From Gloeobacterales cyanobacterium (GTDB lineage: Bacteria > Cyanobacteriota > Cyanobacteriia > Gloeobacterales > PMM-0068): a stretch of 24,802 nt of DNA. The DNA is taken from contig JBBRSB010000043.1 in assembly GCA_038245785.1 (NCBI GenBank), positions 1-24,802 of the forward strand. The letters run 5' to 3'. Under the pieces are notes generated by a model. It had not been told where the DNA came from. It saw only the letters and a list, made by a program, of their open reading frames with translations, and searched no databases. Made by a program: the position numbers and the translations under genes. Shown in pieces: positions 3,895 through 23,069 of the stretch (within the stretch, counting starts at the first letter, position 1; each line of letters begins with the position of its first letter).

Positions 3895-4111
3895 GTTAGT
3901 ACTAATTACAAATAGGTTTTTTTGCGCTAATCTGTTCATACGCTTCTCTATCGGTGTGTAAAACACCGCTTGGGTTACAAGCGTTTTTGAGGGGGAGTCG
4001 TAATGACTCCAGATTTGGTTCAAGACCCTGCCTGGCCGTTCTAGTGGAAAGCAGGGGATCTAAATTGAAAGCCGTTCTAGTGTCACCTAGGACGGTTTTC
4101 GCTTTCTGAGG

Positions 4112-4256
4112 ATTACAACCCTCACCAGCCCCATAAGCGTGTCCGGCAGGCGCAGCCGAGAAGCTCACGTAGGGCCGATGTGTTACCAATGACTCGATGC
4201 TTCCGCATGTGTTGTCAGAATTACAAACCTCACCTTTCTGAGAGAAACCTTAGCAC
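4112..4256 (-). CRISPR. Degenerate orphan mini-array A (2 repeats, 33-nt spacer, possible third remnant ending at 4086)
   Basis: Repeat ATTACAACCCTCACCAGCCCCA|TAGGGCCGATGTGTTAC (4112-4186, interrupted by 36 nt) and ATTACAAACCTCACCTTTCTGAGAGAAACCTTAGCAC (4220-4256, 37 nt). Spacer is 4187-4219. Same repeat family as 12171-12450. Confidence 0.5.
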
Positions 4257-4314
4257 TGATAAAACAATCGGACAATAGGCTCAATTCCCCTTCAGGGGAG
4301 ACTTTCAGACCCTT

Positions 4315-4456
4315 TATACGCGAGCTTTATAGGCAAAACTATACGCGAGCTTTATAGGTCAATCCCTGAAAAACCATCCTCATAGGGCTTTGAAATTTAG
4401 CTGTCAAAAAACTATACGCGAGCTTTATAGGCAAAACTATACGCGAGCTTTATAGG
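4315..4456. repeat. Four identical 19-bp direct repeats in two pairs (iteron-like; candidate origin or partition site)
   Basis: TATACGCGAGCTTTATAGG at 4315, 4340, 4413 and 4438 (spacing 25/73/25). Confidence 0.9.
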
Positions 4457-4585: not shown

Positions 4586-4790
4586 ATGAACCATCCCGAA
4601 GAACAACCCGTCTTTGAGCGCGGAACTGGGAATGTCTATACAGATCTCGGACTGGACGACGCTGACGAACTGTTTGCGCGGTCACAGCTAGGCTTTCAGG
4701 TTTGGAAAATTCTCAAGGAATCAGACTTGAAACAGCGAGAAATCGCAGCACTCTTGGGCATCAAACAGCCCGAAGTGTCCCATTTAATAG
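4586..4790 (+). pseudogene. Truncated XRE-family (HigA-like, HTH_37-type) antitoxin/regulator
   Basis: FERGTGNVYTDLGLDDADEL...LKQREIAALLGIKQPEVSHL with GAGGAGG RBS. After VSHL the frame runs antisense into the GNAT 3' end, so the normal C-terminus appears lost. Confidence 0.7.
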
Positions 4791-4802
4791 AGCCTGAAGA
4801 TG

Positions 4803-5744
4803 TCACCGCCAATCATCTAATACAAAAATACCTGGTCGATTGTAACCAGGCTCGTTTGGTTTATGCATTACTAAACCCGTGATTTCAGTGCGAAAACGAC
4901 GAGCAACCATTCTGGTATAGGCTTCATCACGGCTGGTATTCACTCCAGCAAGAAGACGCAACATTTTTTGAGTTGCCCCAAACGCTTCACACAGATCGAG
5001 CAACTGTTCAAACTGTTCCCCCGCTTGAGCTCCTGGGCGCACTGCTCCAAATTTGACGTAGCATACATCGCTACCTGCTTCGCTTCCTGCACCACAATGA
5101 CAAATAGCAAATCCTGCTAAGTCTGTTTCATCCTAAAGCAAAACAGTATCACCTAAATTCTGAGCATGAACTGCAGCAATCTCATGCGATAAATCTAGCC
5201 CTGCATAGATGGCATTTGTGAGTTCGGAACACTGCTTGAGACAATGCAATCGCTGCTCCGGATCGAATTCAGAGTATTTCGTTCCTGGCAAGTCCTGCTG
5301 AGCTGCCTGAATTGGTTTTGCCATGATGAAGGTTAGAAAACGTGGGTAGAACCCGAATTTCTGATAAAGTGCATGGTGCATTGGGCTATTCGGAAAGGTA
5401 AATAACCCGGTCTGTCGCGTCCCCCTTTGAGCAAATTGAGCAATCACAGGTTCAATGAGACGCTGAGCAATACCCTGCCCCCAAAAGTCAGGATGAACAC
5501 TGAGCGGTCCGAAAAAACCAACACTGCCCCACTGGGTGGCTATATTGGAACCAACCAGCTTTCCATCAGCCTCAGCTACGAATGCCGCTGTTGGATCAAC
5601 TTTCCATCGGGGTTGAATATAGTTTGCATCCCCACCAAAATCGGTGGGTTGAGGCAATCGAATAAAAGTGCCAAAGGCGAGTCGAAAGATATGGTCAGCC
5701 TCCGATAGCTCATTTTTTTGAAGGAGCCGAATAGAGATATCCAT
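4803..5744 (-). pseudogene. Two-domain GNAT acetyltransferase with one in-frame TAG (5133-5135)
   Basis: LSVHPDFWGQGIAQRL acetyl-CoA motif and LYQKFGF. The frame continues past the stop (LL*DETDLAGFAICHCG...) into ORF 4803-5042. Confidence 0.85.
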
Positions 5745-10395: not shown

Positions 10396-11007
10396 ATGAA
10401 CAACCCAATCGCAGCAAGCTGCGGGGTATCTAAAGCGGAAACAACCGTATCTGTTGTGCTCTAGCTTTCTCTTCTTCGCTTCCCTGCTCTTGAATATACT
10501 TTTTAACAAGCGTTCGACTGAGCTCACGCCGAAGTCTCGCTGTTCACTCCGTCGCCAACCGTTCCAATGTAGCCACCATCGCTCCAAAATTCCCCACCCC
10601 ATAGCTGTTTACGGATTTCTGGAAATTGGATAAACATCTGCCGGGCACTAATACTTTCGAGAATCTGCATCACACGGGAGGGAGCATACTTTGGAGCTGC
10701 ACCAACAAACAGATGCACATGGTCTCCATCCGTACCCATCTCCTCCATCTCAAACCAATAGCGCTCTGCAATCTCTTTTAAAACCTGCTTCAAATACACG
10801 CACCGTTCCTCGACGGTTAACAAACGCTGACGATATTTGATGCAGAAAACCATGTGATACCGAATCTGATACACGCAATGACTCGCACGTTGGAGTTTCT
10901 CGCGTTCCGCTGCCGGACACATTGCCAGATTATAGGGCCGACCTCACGGTCAGCAGACTGCTTATCCCAATCGCAGCAAGCTGCGGGGTATGCGCAGTCG
11001 TTTCTAG
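10396..11007 (-). mobile_element. IS200-type element (tnpA only), 612 bp
   Basis: Subterminal hairpins ATACCCCGCAGCTTGCTGCGATTGGG at both ends. Inserted 3' of TTGAT (11012-11008) without a duplication; right end is TTCA(T). Confidence 0.88.
10430..10922 (-). pseudogene. tnpA: IS200/IS605 Y1 HUH transposase, inactivated by a 25-nt insertion
   Basis: HCVYQIRYHMVFCIKYR, DHVHL (HUH) and LWGGEFWSDG. The catalytic Tyr helix (VKKYIQEQG) lies beyond the insertion at 10511-10535, which introduces TGA and a frameshift. Confidence 0.9.
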
Positions 11008-11245: not shown

Positions 11246-12175
11246 ATGAAAAAAATATTGGTCATGTTCACTGGTGGCACCATCTCTCAAAAAGCAGAGG
11301 GTGGGAAAATGCGTGTTGCCTACACTAGTCAAGATCTGTTTATTAACATTGACACGGACATTGAATTAGAATTTGTCGATGTTTCTCAAGCTAACGGCGC
11401 GGAATTAAGGCTAGAGCAACTTTTCAACATAAGAGACTTAGTTTCTAAGCACTCTGACTGTGATGGATACTTGCTCGTTACCGGTACCGACTCTATGGAG
11501 GAAATCGCTTTTGGACTTGACTTGCTCATGGAGCCGAAAAAACCCTTTGTAATTTCTGGTGCGGCGAGGCCCACTGACATCCCCGGCTACGATGGGGAAG
11601 CCAATCTCCGAGCTGCCCTCGCTGTTTTGGAATCACCAGAAGCTCTTACTTTGGGTGTGCTCGTTGTGATGAACGACAATATTCACCCAGCCCGCTATCT
11701 ACGAAAACATGATTCCGCATTGATGGGCGCATTATTCCAGAGTCACCCTGGCCCAATAGCTCAAATTCGCAGTGGCAAACCGTTGTTTTATTACTGTGGA
11801 CTACCTCCAATAAAGCGTTTCACAAAGGCCCAGCGGGAAAAGGCAAGTAACCGCGTGATGATATGGACTATGACAGTAGACCCAATACTTCCCGAGGCCC
11901 TGCTAGAAGACCTCGATGGTTTGGTGCTTGCAGGTATGGGAACTGGCTCGATTTCTTTATCAATAGTTGAGCAACTTGCTCCAAAATGAACTTCTCAAAT
12001 TCCTGTTGTTATAACTTCCCGCTGTCCAGTAGGGCTAAATTACGATGACTACTACTACAAAGGGAGTCTTGAGAAATACGAAAGCAAAGGTTTCCGGATC
12101 CTAGAGTATGAAAAACTAAATCCACTCCAGGCTAGATTACAACTTATTTTGGAAATGGCTTCAGAGTTATCTTAA
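11246..12175 (+). pseudogene. L-asparaginase/glutaminase family protein with one in-frame TGA (11987-11989)
   Basis: FTGGTI and VTGTDSMEE (both catalytic Thr), RKHDS, GLVLAGMGTG. After the stop the frame continues as TSQIPVVITSRC...LNPLQARLQLIL to TAA 12173-12175. Confidence 0.88.
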
Positions 12176-12450
12176 AATTATCACCAGCTCCGAAGGGCCG
12201 ATGTCACTGCCAACTCATCTTCTGAGTTTATCTACATATTCTTACAACCCTCACCAGCCCAGTAAGCATGTCCGGCAGGTGCAGCCAAGAAGCTCATGTA
12301 GGGCCAGTGTCACATCGGACATATTACGATTAATTCGCCCTGCCTTACAACCCTCACCAGTGCCTAGGAACCAGTGTCACGTTATTTACCCAGGAACTTT
12401 CTTATTAATCATAACCCTTGCAGTCACCGATTCCTAAAACCTAGTGTCAC
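12171..12450 (-). CRISPR. Degenerate orphan CRISPR-like array B: four 37-nt repeats, three spacers (33, 30, 33 nt)
   Basis: Repeats at 12171-12207, 12241-12313 (37 nt plus 36-nt insertion), 12344-12380 and 12414-12450. Reconstructed minus-strand repeat: GTGACACTGGCCCTACTGGGCTGGTGAGGGTTGTAAG. Spacers are unique. Confidence 0.7.
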
Positions 12451-12613
12451 TTTCTATTGGAGCCACTGATATAAACAGGCTATAAGCCAATGCGCAAAAA
12501 TAAGTATTAATCTACTAACCTATGGACTCTATCCCTCTGTTTCAGTCAATGTACCCTCTCTAATTGAGCGAGCTGTTAGCAGCGCTACAACTAATGCTGA
12601 GGGAAAGTGCACT

Positions 12614-13003
12614 ATGGGCAATGCTTCCTATGCTAATTGGGTTATCACTAAAGGAACGGGAACGTTCAACGCCTGCATCAATGCTAAACGCGACGGTATT
12701 ATCAATGCTGAATACATGGGACAGTGGTTAGTCTGCCTATGGCATCATGCAATGCAGACCGCCAGCTTGCAGCGAGGGGAGTGGGATCTGGTGGAATGTG
12801 TGATCGCAACCCATAGCACCCCGTACGGCAATGCTCAACTAAGCGCGATTTCCAACTTGGTGGAGATTAACTTTGATGATCAGGCACAAACCCACAACAT
12901 TAATGTAGGCCATCCGCCAGAAGGGGTAACCCTAACACGACTGAGTGAGGCGATTAGCGGCCTACTGGCTGAGTATCCTCCAACGGTAAGCATGGCAGCT
13001 TAA
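12614..13003 (+). CDS. Hypothetical protein (may originally have started at ATG 12522 with a frameshift)
   Basis: 129-aa ORF; the frame is open upstream to about 12520. No motif recognised. Confidence 0.55.
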   Translation: MGNASYANWVITKGTGTFNACINAKRDGIINAEYMGQWLVCLWHHAMQTASLQRGEWDLVECVIATHSTPYGNAQLSAISNLVEINFDDQAQTHNINVGHPPEGVTLTRLSEAISGLLAEYPPTVSMAA

Positions 13004-13111
13004 GCTTTGACTCTTCTGCTTTGGAGCTGTTTCGTTTATATTATTGCTGCCAACGCAATTTTTGGAGATGGCTTCAGATCCGTACGTTAGTTGATAGGTT
13101 AGGTTTTTAAG

Positions 13112-14167
13112 ATGAGCGAACCGACGACTGAACAGACAGAGCGCAACTATCAGGCCATCGGCACGGTTGAGGGAATTCTAGAACTCTCGGATTCCTGTGC
13201 TCTACTGCATATGGGAGAGACTGCTTTTCCAGTATCTGTCTCTCCGCTAGTCCTGAAGAAGCATACCCCAGGACAGATACAGCGCTTTCGGGTATATCCA
13301 AAGCTATGGCAGGGGAAACCCAGCTTTTCCCTCGTCTGTGTAACCGAATCACCAGTCAGTCCCCTTGTGCTCAAGGGTTGCTGGCAAATCCATCAAGACT
13401 TGCCCTACCTGGTGATCTATCGGAATCAGATACGCAGCAAGAGAGATCAGAAGTTGTTTCATCTAGTGTCTGTCCAGTGGCCCGATGCCCCGAAGCCCAA
13501 TGGTAAATTCTGGGAGTTGGAAGCAGAAATCCGTGACGGCGCATTTATAGTGAACCGTGCCGAAGGCCCTTTCGCGCCACCCCCACGGGTAAAACCGCCA
13601 AACTTAGCTCATCAAAAATTCGGTAAAGGGGCAAAGCATCAAAAAACGAAGCCCCAGTTTACGAGTGAGTCCCCGCGTATAGTCAAACCCCAGCGGGTAG
13701 AAGCACAGGTCCAAGCAACTCCATTGACCGCTCAGGAGATCCGAAAGATGGCAATTCCCACCAAGATCCAAGTCACCTGCAAAATTTCAGAAGTCCCCCC
13801 TTGCCGAGAGCTGCCGTCGAAAGAGATTGAGTTTTTCTTAGCGGATGGGGACCGAATATTGAACGTGCGGATGAAGGCCAAGCAGTTCAGCAAGCTTACC
13901 CAACACGGGTTTGAGCAGTGGATAGCTGCTATTTCTGGAGAATTGGGACCAGCTACAGAATCAGGCTTCGAGTTGGTGAATGCGAGTATTCAGATTTTTG
14001 AGAAGTTATCTAAACCCAAAAGAGACTCAGAACCCGCTAGCGGAAAAATTCAAGAAGTCGCATCCGTTCCACACACCTCTTCAGCGCATCCACCTGAGCT
14101 GAAGGGAGAGGAGCAACCGAAAGAACGGCAGCGCAAAAATTTATTGTCCGGCGTCCGGTTGGCTTAA
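13112..14167 (+). CDS. Cyanobacterial plasmid protein with C-terminal 'FinO-like' domain
   Basis: YQAIG..G...FRVYP N-terminal domain, and KIQVTCKISEVP...W.AAISGELG..T..GFEL....IQIFEK C-terminal domain typical of this family. Confidence 0.75.
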   Translation: MSEPTTEQTERNYQAIGTVEGILELSDSCALLHMGETAFPVSVSPLVLKKHTPGQIQRFRVYPKLWQGKPSFSLVCVTESPVSPLVLKGCWQIHQDLPYLVIYRNQIRSKRDQKLFHLVSVQWPDAPKPNGKFWELEAEIRDGAFIVNRAEGPFAPPPRVKPPNLAHQKFGKGAKHQKTKPQFTSESPRIVKPQRVEAQVQATPLTAQEIRKMAIPTKIQVTCKISEVPPCRELPSKEIEFFLADGDRILNVRMKAKQFSKLTQHGFEQWIAAISGELGPATESGFELVNASIQIFEKLSKPKRDSEPASGKIQEVASVPHTSSAHPPELKGEEQPKERQRKNLLSGVRLA

Positions 14168-19762: not shown

Positions 19763-20935
19763 ATGGCACATAAGGCATTCAAGTACAGGTTTTACCCAAA
19801 CGCAGAGCAAGAAACACTGCTCCGCCGCACACTCGGTTGCGCCCGTTTGGTCTACAATCGTGCTTTAGCCTTGCGTACAGAAGCCTGGTACGAAAGAAAA
19901 GAGCGGATTGATTACGTAAAAACCTCAGCGCATCTAACTCAATGGAAAAAGCAAGAAGACCTAATCTTCCTCAATGAAGTGAGCTCTGTGCCCTTGCAGC
20001 AAGGGCTCAGGCATTTACAAACCGCATTTACTAATTTCTTCTCAGGCAGAGCCAAATATCCTAATTTCAAGAAAAAGCATCAAGGGGGCAGCGCTGAATT
20101 TACACTAGCGGCTTTCAGGTTTAAAGATGGTCAAATCTATCTAGCCAAGTGCAAGAAGCCTTTAGCTATCCGATGGAGTCAGCAATTACCTAAAGGTGTA
20201 GAGCCTTCAGCAGTAACCGTTAAACTAGACGCCTCTGGGCGCTGGACCGTTTCTTTGCTTGTTGAAACCGAGATAGATAAACTACCAATTTCTTTTATTA
20301 ATGTAGGGATTGATTTAGGGATAACCAGTCTAATTACTCTGTCTGATGGCTCTAAGGTCTCTAATCCTAAAACCTTTAATGCCAAATACAAGAAGCTTCG
20401 TAAAGCGCAGAAAGCACTTAGCCGAAAGGTCAAAGGTTCTAGTAACAGGCAAAAAGCTCGTTTGCAAGTCGCTAAGGTTCATGCCCAGATTAGCGATGCT
20501 AGAAAAGATTTTCTCCATAAGGTAACGACTCAATTGATTCGTGATAACCAAACGATTGTAATTGAAGACTTGGCTGTGAAGAATATGGTGAAGAACCATA
20601 AACTCGCTCGTGCTATCAGCGACGCTAGTTGGGGTGAATTGGTCCGTCAGCTCACCTATAAAGCTGAGTGGTATGGTCGGACCTTGATTAAGATAGACCG
20701 TTGGTTTCCTAGCTCTAAGCGCTGTAATTCCTGCGGTTACGTAGTTGATAAGTTGCCATTGAATATCCGTGAATGGACTTGCTCTAAATGTAGTGCAGTG
20801 CATGACCGAGATATCAATGCAGCGATTAACGTTTTGGCCGCTGGGCTAGCGGTGTCAGCTTCTGGAGCATCTGTAAGACCAAAGGGCATTAGCCCAGAGG
20901 CTGGAGCGTTGAAAGAAGAATCCTTTGCCCTTTAG
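19763..20935 (+). CDS. tnpB: RNA-guided endonuclease TnpB, apparently intact
   Basis: KAFKYRFYP HTH, RuvC-I GIDLG, RuvC-II VIEDL, Zn finger CNSC/CSKC, RuvC-III HDRDINAAIN. Confidence 0.96.
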   Translation: MAHKAFKYRFYPNAEQETLLRRTLGCARLVYNRALALRTEAWYERKERIDYVKTSAHLTQWKKQEDLIFLNEVSSVPLQQGLRHLQTAFTNFFSGRAKYPNFKKKHQGGSAEFTLAAFRFKDGQIYLAKCKKPLAIRWSQQLPKGVEPSAVTVKLDASGRWTVSLLVETEIDKLPISFINVGIDLGITSLITLSDGSKVSNPKTFNAKYKKLRKAQKALSRKVKGSSNRQKARLQVAKVHAQISDARKDFLHKVTTQLIRDNQTIVIEDLAVKNMVKNHKLARAISDASWGELVRQLTYKAEWYGRTLIKIDRWFPSSKRCNSCGYVVDKLPLNIREWTCSKCSAVHDRDINAAINVLAAGLAVSASGASVRPKGISPEAGALKEESFAL

Positions 20936-22551: not shown

Positions 22552-22853
22552 CTAGGCATACTAAAAGCAGCAAAACTTAACTCTTGAAAGCCGACTGCGC
22601 GATGTGTTAATCGTACCGCCTCAACAAAGGATTTTGCAATTGGGAGTTCCACTCATTGCCTATATTTTAAAAGAATAGTAGAATTTGCTTGAAGCCTGTA
22701 ATGGTTTCCCTGCTTAATATAAGCAGCTAACGAGAATACAGCTCTTTTCAGTCTGATGAGGTACAGTAAAAGCCCTGAAACATTTGCTATATGCCGATCT
22801 AAGATCTTGATTCGTACCTAACTAGAGTGGGAAACGCTGTAGGAATTTCAAAT

Positions 22854-23069
22854 ATGGCTTTAGATCAACTCGAGGCGTTTTTAAAGAAAATGCAGTCTGA
22901 ACCTGCACTTAAGAACGAGGTGCTCAAAGCATCAACTGCAGATGATGTTGCGCGAATAGCACTAAAACTTGGTTTTGAATTTTCAGGTGATGAATTACTG
23001 AGAATGTCAGGAAAGAAATTTGGCGGAGTTACTATTATAAAAACCGATCTTCCTGGGGAGTATAATTAA
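22854..23069 (+). CDS. Nif11-like leader peptide family protein, in an inverted cassette
   Basis: MALDQLEAFLKKMQSEPALKNEV..A...DDVA.IA..LGFEFSGDEL matches the Nif11 leader pattern. Confidence 0.82.
   Translation: MALDQLEAFLKKMQSEPALKNEVLKASTADDVARIALKLGFEFSGDELLRMSGKKFGGVTIIKTDLPGEYN

Follow-up and report, generated by a model that had tools for sequence, protein, structure and literature searches.

A hidden repeat array in a Gloeobacterales contig as the probable remnant of a divergent type I-C-like CRISPR-Cas locus

What is the hidden series of repeats that occupies positions 12171-12450 of contig JBBRSB010000043.1, a 24,802-nucleotide (nt) stretch from a Gloeobacterales cyanobacterium (assembly GCA_038245785.1), and does it still serve any purpose? 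This whole stretch is hereafter called the window. A sequence-only reading had described the element as an orphan CRISPR array, with repeats shaped like those of type V-K and no CRISPR-associated (cas) genes, and had offered as interpretations a guide module that borrows an effector in trans, an RNA decoy or a decaying relic. On the evidence described below, a genuine CRISPR array read from the minus strand is retained, as is the decaying relic as the best supported of these interpretations, whereas membership of the V-K family and the lack of cas genes are not. We judge it quite probable that the segment is the degenerate tail of an array that once belonged to a divergent type I-C-like locus and is now decaying. 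The notion of an orphan V-K module is replaced by a more ordinary one, namely a type I remnant with a cas7 pseudogene attached.

The array, which we call array B, consists of four units, three of 37 nt each and one (12241-12313) of 73 nt. Start-to-start spacing is 70/103/70 nt, which becomes 70/67/70 when the net 36 nt of additional sequence is subtracted from the long unit. The intervening spacers of 33, 30 and 33 nt have no similarity to one another or to the rest of the genome. On the plus strand, the units have in common a 5' block resembling CTTACAACCCTCACCAG and a 3' block resembling CCAGTGTCAC, and a repeat search of the window recovered both of these conserved ends as repeat families (D1 and D2) with three copies each. 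The repeat array exceeds chance expectation, and the layout first proposed for it, with four 37-nt repeats, a single expansion and unique spacers, is real. The accompanying remark that standard finders could miss it was fair, given that Tandem Repeats Finder reported five rows in the window and none at 12171-12450.

The components of the array are given here in the direction of minus-strand reading, with plus-strand coordinates. Identities are to the repeats of L016 and L013, two loci in metagenome-assembled genomes (MAGs) of Chamaesiphon that are introduced below; the handle is the 11-nt tail of a repeat, and the stem is its nine-base-pair (bp) hairpin stem.

12414..12450, minus strand: repeat B4, first in the reading direction; degenerate, 19/37 identical to the L016 and L013 repeats; handle 2/11, stem 6/9
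12381..12413, minus strand: spacer 1, 33 nt; unique, no match found
12344..12380, minus strand: repeat B3, the best preserved; 30/37 identical to the L016 repeat; handle 11/11, stem 8/9
12314..12343, minus strand: spacer 2, 30 nt; frame 0 reads AGRINRNMSD, which resembles Cas3 helicase motif VI
12241..12313, minus strand: repeat B2, 73 nt; handle 11/11, stem 9/9, loop expanded
12208..12240, minus strand: spacer 3, 33 nt; unique, no match found
12171..12207, minus strand: repeat B1, the last unit; 30/37 identical to the L013 repeat; stem 8/9, handle 7/11 and degenerate

When read from the minus strand, each unit starts with 4 nt, then forms a stem-loop and ends in an 11-nt tail, and the plus strand does not form such a fold. 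Eight or nine of the nine stem pairs are formed in the repeats that begin at 12171, 12241 and 12344, and likewise in A2 (4112-4186), a unit of a second mini-array on the same contig. Two of the pairs in each of these four repeats are G.U, and on the plus strand their counterparts would be C.A mismatches; the minus-strand orientation that had been proposed earlier is therefore supported. The hairpin of B1 together with its T-rich tail scores as terminator-like, and this unit overlaps the stop codon of an asparaginase gene on the opposite strand. When both strands of the 5.0-Mb genome were scanned with a profile built exclusively from 12 repeat variants of other genomes, eight matches were obtained at E<=10. 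The best four of these are all located on the minus strand of this contig, at 12344-12380 (E 1e-4), 12181-12207 (4e-4), 12241-12266 (2e-3) and 4113-4133 (0.011).

The family to which these repeats belong is most evident from its occurrence elsewhere. An exact-pattern scan with the two conserved repeat ends, covering one genome for each of 185,579 species, returned six loci. Four of these, on two Chamaesiphon MAG contigs, are true arrays, and a deltaproteobacterial MAG and a Maribacter MAG contain one match each, in isolation. In the L016 array there are 50 pattern matches, spacers of 31-43 nt and further variant units inside two long gaps; the L013 array contains 14 pattern matches. In both loci the array starts approximately 160 nt past cas3, whose 712-716-residue product carries HD and helicase domains, and the genes for Cas5d (PF09704/TIGR01876), Csd1/Cas8c (PF09709) and Cas7/Csd2 (PF05107) are positioned divergently upstream; PF09709 is matched over its full length with E values of 7e-24 in L016 and 9e-19 in L013. 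The order in intact relatives can be written as cas7<-cas8c<-cas5 followed by cas3->array->, and a metagenome contig (L022) shows the same order with a three-repeat array. A further locus, L019 (genome G211, from another cyanobacterium), carries cas7 and then directly an array of this repeat with eight pattern matches. Thus, the full set of cas3, cas5, cas8c and cas7 is found in L016, L013 and L022, and the short L019 locus shows cas7 only. Among the 19 open reading frames (ORFs) scanned in the 8-kb flanks of L016 and L013, no Cas6 family was found, and these flanks likewise contain no Cas12k and no Tn7-like genes.

Because the repeat forms canonical arrays beside cas3 and cas5-cas8c-cas7 in these relatives, the family is, to judge from its genomic company, a CRISPR family of type I-C-like character rather than V-K. 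The hairpin itself is conserved in a manner consistent with this assignment: across 14 repeat variants (10 from relatives, 4 from the window), 89.7% of the cells of the 9-bp stem are paired, versus 31-52% when the partner strand is slid, and 5/9 stem pairs change on both sides. We call the system divergent because all scores of the relatives are well under the curated NCBIfam cut-offs for I-C proteins (54.7 versus 182 for Cas7, 63 versus 218.65 for Cas8c and 47.6 versus 85 for Cas5c). Of 400 other cyanobacterial genomes in the sample, only 3 gave a Cas7 homologue, and all 3 belong to a single other family. In the two genomes of the same genus (G001 and G002), both the locus and a Cas7 homologue are absent (0/2), and viral contigs yielded no Cas7 relative and no repeat match.

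Comparison with established type I-C systems reveals both likeness and difference. The relatives' arrays lie beside cas3, cas5 (Cas5d), cas8c (Csd1) and a Csd2-like cas7, with no cas6 in the 8-kb flanks, and the regulatory target described below carries TTC. TTC is the usual protospacer-adjacent motif (PAM) of I-C systems. A type I-C repeat is described as consisting of a hairpin and, on its 3' side, an 11-nt overhang that later becomes the 5' handle (PMC8524198), and the window repeat has a parallel layout, with cleavage at the corresponding place predicted. However, it measures 37 nt (4 nt, 9-bp stem, tetraloop, 11-nt tail), whereas the I-C repeat measures 32 nt (2 nt, 7-bp stem, pentaloop, 11 nt). 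The relatives also differ from I-C in that cas3 is divergent from cas5-8-7 and in that no cas1/2/4 is seen in the flanks, and the window differs further in that it retains four degenerate repeats and a cas7 fragment only. With respect to the missing adaptation genes, we note that no cas1, cas2 or cas4 was present among the ORFs scanned in the 8-kb flanks of L016 and L013, even though L016 has at least 50 spacers; adaptation for I-C-like loci may be supplied in trans.

The intact relatives also carry solitary repeats outside their arrays. Between cas3 and cas5 in 3/3 intact relatives, there are one or two degenerate repeats, then a 16-nt pseudo-spacer, and then a terminator-like hairpin, located as follows.

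L016:5557-5645, minus strand: solitary-repeat region
L022:5099-5230: solitary-repeat region
L013:about 5045-5200, minus strand: solitary-repeat region

Immediately ahead of cas5, 75-83 nt downstream of the pseudo-spacer, there is a site complementary to it at 13-14/16 positions, and TTC is found on the opposite strand. Such complementarity was reached by 0-2/1000 shuffles, and positions 2 and 4 of guide and target co-vary between loci. These solitary repeats look like autoregulatory mini-CRISPRs of the CreR type, a kind of element for which experimental demonstrations are reported in I-B, I-E and V-A systems (10.1101/2023.03.10.532045). A separate description may be warranted for this divergent I-C-like subfamily, which occurs in a few cyanobacteria and is distinguished by 37-nt repeats and by a conserved, apparently self-regulatory solitary repeat upstream of cas5. 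Another solitary degenerate repeat is located directly past the cas7 stop codon in L016 (2129-2165, minus strand), the position at which L019 has a full array.

The type I-C-like assignment is reinforced within the window itself, where the claim that no cas genes are present must be withdrawn. A 5'-truncated cas7 gene begins 70 nt from the array, and the two intervals concerned are listed below.

12451..12520, strand not assigned: array-cas7 junction, 70 nt; no homology to relatives' leaders or cas genes
12521..13003, plus strand: 5'-truncated cas7 (Csd2-like), corresponding to residues 127-283 of the 286 in L016 Cas7; 72% identity, no internal stop

Cas proteins of four relatives were used as tblastn queries against the whole genome. 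With Cas3, Cas5, Cas8c and Cas7 of L016, a single match was obtained, that of Cas7 to 12521-12991 (E 8e-77), and this correspondence to annotated relatives settles the identity of the fragment as a cas7 remnant. Five relatives have a cas7 match at the DNA level. Homology begins abruptly at 12521 relative to four of them (L016, L013, L022 and L023); in the fifth and more distant one, L019, the alignment begins only at 12587. Identity at the DNA level is 72-76%. The fragment is encoded on the strand opposite to that of the array, which lies upstream of the truncated 5' end. No alignment is seen between the 70 nt preceding B4 and the leaders of the relatives.

The remaining partners were not recovered. 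Cas5, Cas8c and Cas3 of L016 gave no whole-genome tblastn match at E<=1e-3 in this assembly of 255 contigs and 98.2% completeness, so that of the complete effector set (cas3, cas5, cas8c and cas7) the genome was found to hold the 3' fragment of cas7 only. Pfam models for Cas5d, Csd1 and Cas7 likewise found nothing in the genome, but these family negatives are weak, and to that extent count against the interpretation given below, because the fragment in the window is itself overlooked by the Cas7 model and the control for Csd1 was silent in 14/14 control genomes. The genome does possess other CRISPR arrays, on contig C20, which have an unrelated 36-37-nt repeat. Given that they adjoin genes for Cmr2/Cas10, Cmr3, RAMP proteins and Cas1, the CRISPR system of the host is assigned to type III-B.

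How could such an arrangement have arisen? All that is left is the 3' 40-45% of cas7 together with four repeats, in the relative orientation found in intact relatives. Removal of everything from mid-cas7 through cas8c, cas5, cas3 and the leader in the L016/L022 arrangement would yield the layout of the window, and synteny thus suggests a deletion that took the 5' part of cas7, cas8c, cas5, cas3, the leader and probably some repeats. When the locus was whole, Cas5c would have cut the minus-strand transcript at the 3' base of each hairpin, leaving the 11-nt AGGGUUGUAAG as the 5' handle, a step that we infer from the architecture of the repeat and from how Cas5c is reported to act. Since no cognate Cascade or Cas3 was found in the genome, the array most likely no longer supports interference, and its present function is most likely none. 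Signs of decay include the loss of the handle in 2/4 repeats of array B and the invasion of one loop by a dispersed repeat. Two promoter-like sites are predicted in 11900-13200, both on the plus strand and none on the minus strand.

One spacer offers a possible reason for the loss. The first 16 nt of each of the five spacers in the two mini-arrays were scanned against the loci of relatives with a shuffled background, and only spacer 2 rose above that background, with both of its matches at one site inside cas3. Over its full length, spacer 2 is identical at 22/30 nt to cas3 of L013 and at 20/30 to those of L016 and L022, and it hits a common site in 3/3 close relatives. A score of 22/30 was reached by 1/500 shuffles of spacer 2, and the values of the other four spacers were equalled by 124-488/500. 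Its translation, AGRINRNMSD, corresponds to AGRINRNKKD or AGRINRNQKD in the relatives, where the peptide is preceded by QF; the string QFAGRINR in their Cas3 proteins is what we take to be helicase motif VI. In the first seven codons, spacer 2 differs from the relatives at synonymous third positions only. Its 73% identity equals that of the cas7 fragment (72-76%), and is therefore as expected today of a spacer that once matched the lost cognate cas3 perfectly. Hence spacer 2 looks like a copy of part of a cas3 gene of the cognate family; an origin from a foreign cas3 or from another helicase gene is the alternative.

If so, the array would have acquired a spacer against its own cas3, autoimmunity would have followed, and the survivors would have been cells in which a deletion spanning the target had removed the cas genes. 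Deletion of cas genes or of a whole locus is listed among the escapes from self-targeting (PMC6990116), and the same source cites Lactobacillus acidophilus NCFM as a strain that deleted its cas cassette. The window resembles such degraded loci in that its array has outlived the cas genes and includes a spacer matching a gene of its own type. It is unlike them in that the apparent target, its own cas3, is itself gone, and the self-match is deduced from orthologues at 73%. We prefer this particular route to loss, by self-targeting of cas3 and then a deletion spanning the target, to other accounts, and rate it as somewhat less likely than not. If true, the locus would be a natural record of autoimmunity and subsequent cas loss with the culprit spacer still present, a sequence of events known in principle and rarely documented with that spacer in place.

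Against the host's own genome, the five spacers have at most 16 contiguous matches besides self-hits. Array B has no match among 72,556 plasmids and only three sub-threshold matches (E 0.1-0.3) among 50,697 phages, all in phages of unrelated hosts, and array A matches nothing in either collection. A search of plasmid, phage and host DNA, as had been suggested for the spacers, thus comes back empty for spacers 1 and 3, and for spacer 2 there is the resemblance to relatives' cas3 alone.

The second mini-array, array A, was encountered during the DNA search of relatives, which revealed that repeat B2 has a 91%-identical, 64-nt paralogue at 4113-4176. The surrounding region (4050-4256, minus strand) contains three further repeat units separated by spacers of 33 and 25 nt.

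4220..4256, minus strand: repeat A1; handle 9/11, stem partly retained
4112..4186, minus strand: repeat A2, 75 nt; handle 10/11, stem 9/9; carries the 40-nt loop extension of B2 at the identical position
4050..4086, minus strand: repeat A3; repeat-like in its first 10 nt only, 13/37

In B2, the insertion amounts to 40 nt (12261-12300) in place of the 4-nt loop, for a net gain of 36 nt, and its counterpart in A2 is at 4132-4171. A 32-nt core of this extension, resembling TAAGCGTGTCCGGCAGGCGCAGCCGAGAAGCT, has four copies in one same-genus genome (G001, contigs C216, C305, C89 and C108) and one copy in the other (G002, C78), in unrelated intergenic contexts. In the host's own genome, it is confined to the hairpin loops of B2 and A2. 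This distribution identifies the 32-nt core as a small dispersed repeat of the genus, one that would have invaded the CRISPR hairpin loop after arrival of the locus. A tblastn search for cas fragments near array A at E<=20 returned noise only. We also considered array A as a remnant of the solitary-repeat regulator of relatives, and rejected this because the resemblance (a shared 8-nt loop string in A1 and L022, and a spacer match of about 11/19 with a gap) is too weak. Perfect 25-nt tandem repeats (AAAACTATACGCGAGCTTTATAGGC, two copies) are present at 4312-4356 and 4408-4456, with a related 13-nt array nearby. They share the 700-nt intergenic region of array A, upstream of a helix-turn-helix gene at 4586-4882, and are possibly iterons or operator sites.

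Several observations weigh against a decaying I-C-like relic with a self-targeting history. That the spacer was acquired before the deletion took place is inferred and not shown. Preservation exceeds what simple neutral decay would leave: two repeats have a perfect 11-nt handle, 4/7 repeats on the contig keep 8-9/9 stem pairs, partly by means of G.U pairs, the cas7 fragment is stop-free over 160 codons with an ATG at 12614, and two separate mini-arrays persist on one contig. A 255-contig, 98.2%-complete assembly could also leave a cognate Cascade elsewhere. With respect to spacer 2, the match is to relatives only and the true protospacer was not found; the 10-residue peptide match does not by itself reach significance (tblastn E 5.7); and other Cas3 proteins contain helicase motif VI as well, the best of the more distant ones, L041, reaching 20/30. 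In addition, the triplet upstream of the spacer 2 site in the relatives' cas3 is TTT, a Phe codon, in 3/3 cases, versus TTC at the relatives' regulatory target. Against this last objection, TTN PAMs are reported as functional in one I-C system (PMC8916207).

The alternative that survives best, which we nonetheless consider unlikely, is that a mobile element maintains the mini-arrays as a guide or decoy module that still works, producing RNAs similar to CRISPR RNAs (crRNAs) that either hijack the I-C-like Cascade of a host or rival with such a system, against or to silence its cas3, or titrate Cas5c or Cascade as an RNA anti-CRISPR. B3, B2 and A2 retain intact handles and stems, and the cas3 that spacer 2 matches is that of the very family in which this repeat is used. 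The same contig has, in addition, toxin-antitoxin-like genes, a methyltransferase, an IS200-type transposase and TnpB. Moreover, the rarity and patchiness of the system (the 3/400 cyanobacteria with a Cas7 homologue) mean that a mobile element would meet hosts both with and without it. Anti-defence crRNA-like arrays of phages and plasmids are described in 10.1101/2024.10.29.618823, where I-C is among the targets and 16/219 candidates are plasmid-borne. Like these Cracr arrays or RNA anti-CRISPR decoys, the window arrays are short (2-4 units), degenerate and outside a complete cas locus, on a contig that is possibly mobile. However, the window spacers are of full length (30-33 nt), a cas7 pseudogene is attached, and the phyla named in the accessible part of that source exclude cyanobacteria. 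The PAM-proximal partial match to a cas promoter that marks CreR and Cracr guides is absent from the five window spacers, none of which (0/5) reaches 13/16 in the relatives' cas3-cas5 intergenic regions and whose matches fall inside cas3 coding sequence only, whereas it is present in the solitary repeats of relatives (13-14/16, TTC, 3/3). An adjacent truncated cas7 in synteny with intact loci points to in-situ decay of a full locus and not to a purpose-built module, the segment has no predicted minus-strand promoter, B4 and A3 have no handle, and the mobility of the contig is unproven. A more specific version, in which the guide cassettes of a mobile contig would, through spacer 2, turn the Cascade-Cas3 of a host on its own cas3 and so act as a nucleic-acid anti-CRISPR, destroying or silencing the gene for the effector nuclease, with the truncated Cas7 as a possible poison, strikes us as improbable.

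We consider it very improbable that the repeats are not CRISPR at all, and instead are protein-binding iterons, hairpins of the repetitive extragenic palindromic (REP) or attC kind, or a tandem small-RNA array that mimics a repeat-spacer layout. Array A does share its intergenic region with the perfect 25-nt tandem repeats, which are possible iterons, and there is no match in Rfam, where no family reached the gathering score over the whole window and a search of 11900-12800 at E<=10 gave two chance-level matches. However, other genomes carry this 37-nt unit next to cas genes in arrays of 14 and of at least 50 copies with differing spacers, and here the array adjoins a fragment of the cognate cas7. 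Within the genome, the repeat family is restricted to this contig, unlike dispersed REP elements, and gene cassettes would not fit into spacings of 30-33 nt. Integron attC sites were rejected because core sites are lacking and the spacing is too short, hairpins of the REP type and their associated transposases (REP/RAYT) because the repeat family is not dispersed, and the RNA repeats of type III toxin-antitoxin systems because there is no adjacent toxin gene and spacers are present.

Least credible of all, and in our view refuted, is an orphan V-K guide array that borrows Cas12k of a CRISPR-associated transposon in trans: the 37-nt length, the 9/10 agreement of the last 10 nt (GGGTTGTAAG) with the V-K end GGGTTGAAAG (10.1101/2025.03.07.641588) and a TniQ-family fragment elsewhere in the genome, on C139, are outweighed by the I-C-like cas7 fragment beside the array, by the cas genes, and not cas12k or tnsB/C/tniQ, that accompany 4/4 loci with real arrays of this repeat, by a window repeat (CTGGTGAGGGTTGTAAG) that differs in its 5' end, its stem and the longer V-K 3' consensus quoted in that source (wkrGGyGGGTTGAAAG or GGTGGTGGGTTGAAAG), by the 10 genomic occurrences of GGGTTGAAAG versus 9.6 expected, never in arrays or a V-K context, and by the interruption of the TniQ fragment by an IS630-like insertion on a 1.9-kb contig without an array. 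The V-K identity first proposed for the array thus yields to that of its homologues beside cas3, cas5, cas8c/Csd1 and cas7/Csd2, while the statement that the window lacks cas12k, tnsB, tnsC and tniQ holds among the Pfam-scanned ORFs, a scan that included no dedicated Cas12k model. On contig C139 (L011, 400-885 and 912-1927), the N-terminal TniQ-family fragment, interrupted by the IS630-like element, is a remnant of a Tn7-like transposon.

The surroundings of the relic bear on how the I-C-like segment may have reached this site. Two 19-nt direct repeats flank the array and the cas7 fragment, and either copy can complete the asparaginase reading frame.

12147..12165, plus strand: direct repeat, left copy; 19 nt, 18/19 identical, in the last codons of the asparaginase gene
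13060..13078, plus strand: direct repeat, right copy; would encode an alternative asparaginase C-terminus

Because the direct repeats bracket the remnant in this way, the arrangement suggests that the CRISPR-Cas segment entered at the 3' end of the asparaginase gene as an integrated element. The asparaginase gene itself (11246-12175) contains an in-frame TGA at 11987-11989, where two homologues (63-64% identity) have Trp (SPEW/SPQW); it is likely a pseudogene, unless the codon reflects a base-call error. The contig ends have no terminal overlap, and the G+C content of the contig (0.475) is similar to that of the genome (0.478), so that its nature as a plasmid is unproven; a Pfam scan of 30 window ORFs found no recognised replication or partition family. 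Other features of the contig include an IS200-type Y1 transposase at 10524-10922 (minus strand) and, 9 kb apart from it, a full-length TnpB at 19763-20935 (plus strand) with OrfB_IS605 and a Cas12f-like TNB domain. Finally, the segment at 22840-23068 is 86-89% identical to genes for Nif11-like leader-peptide precursors on Nostoc and Stanieria plasmids.

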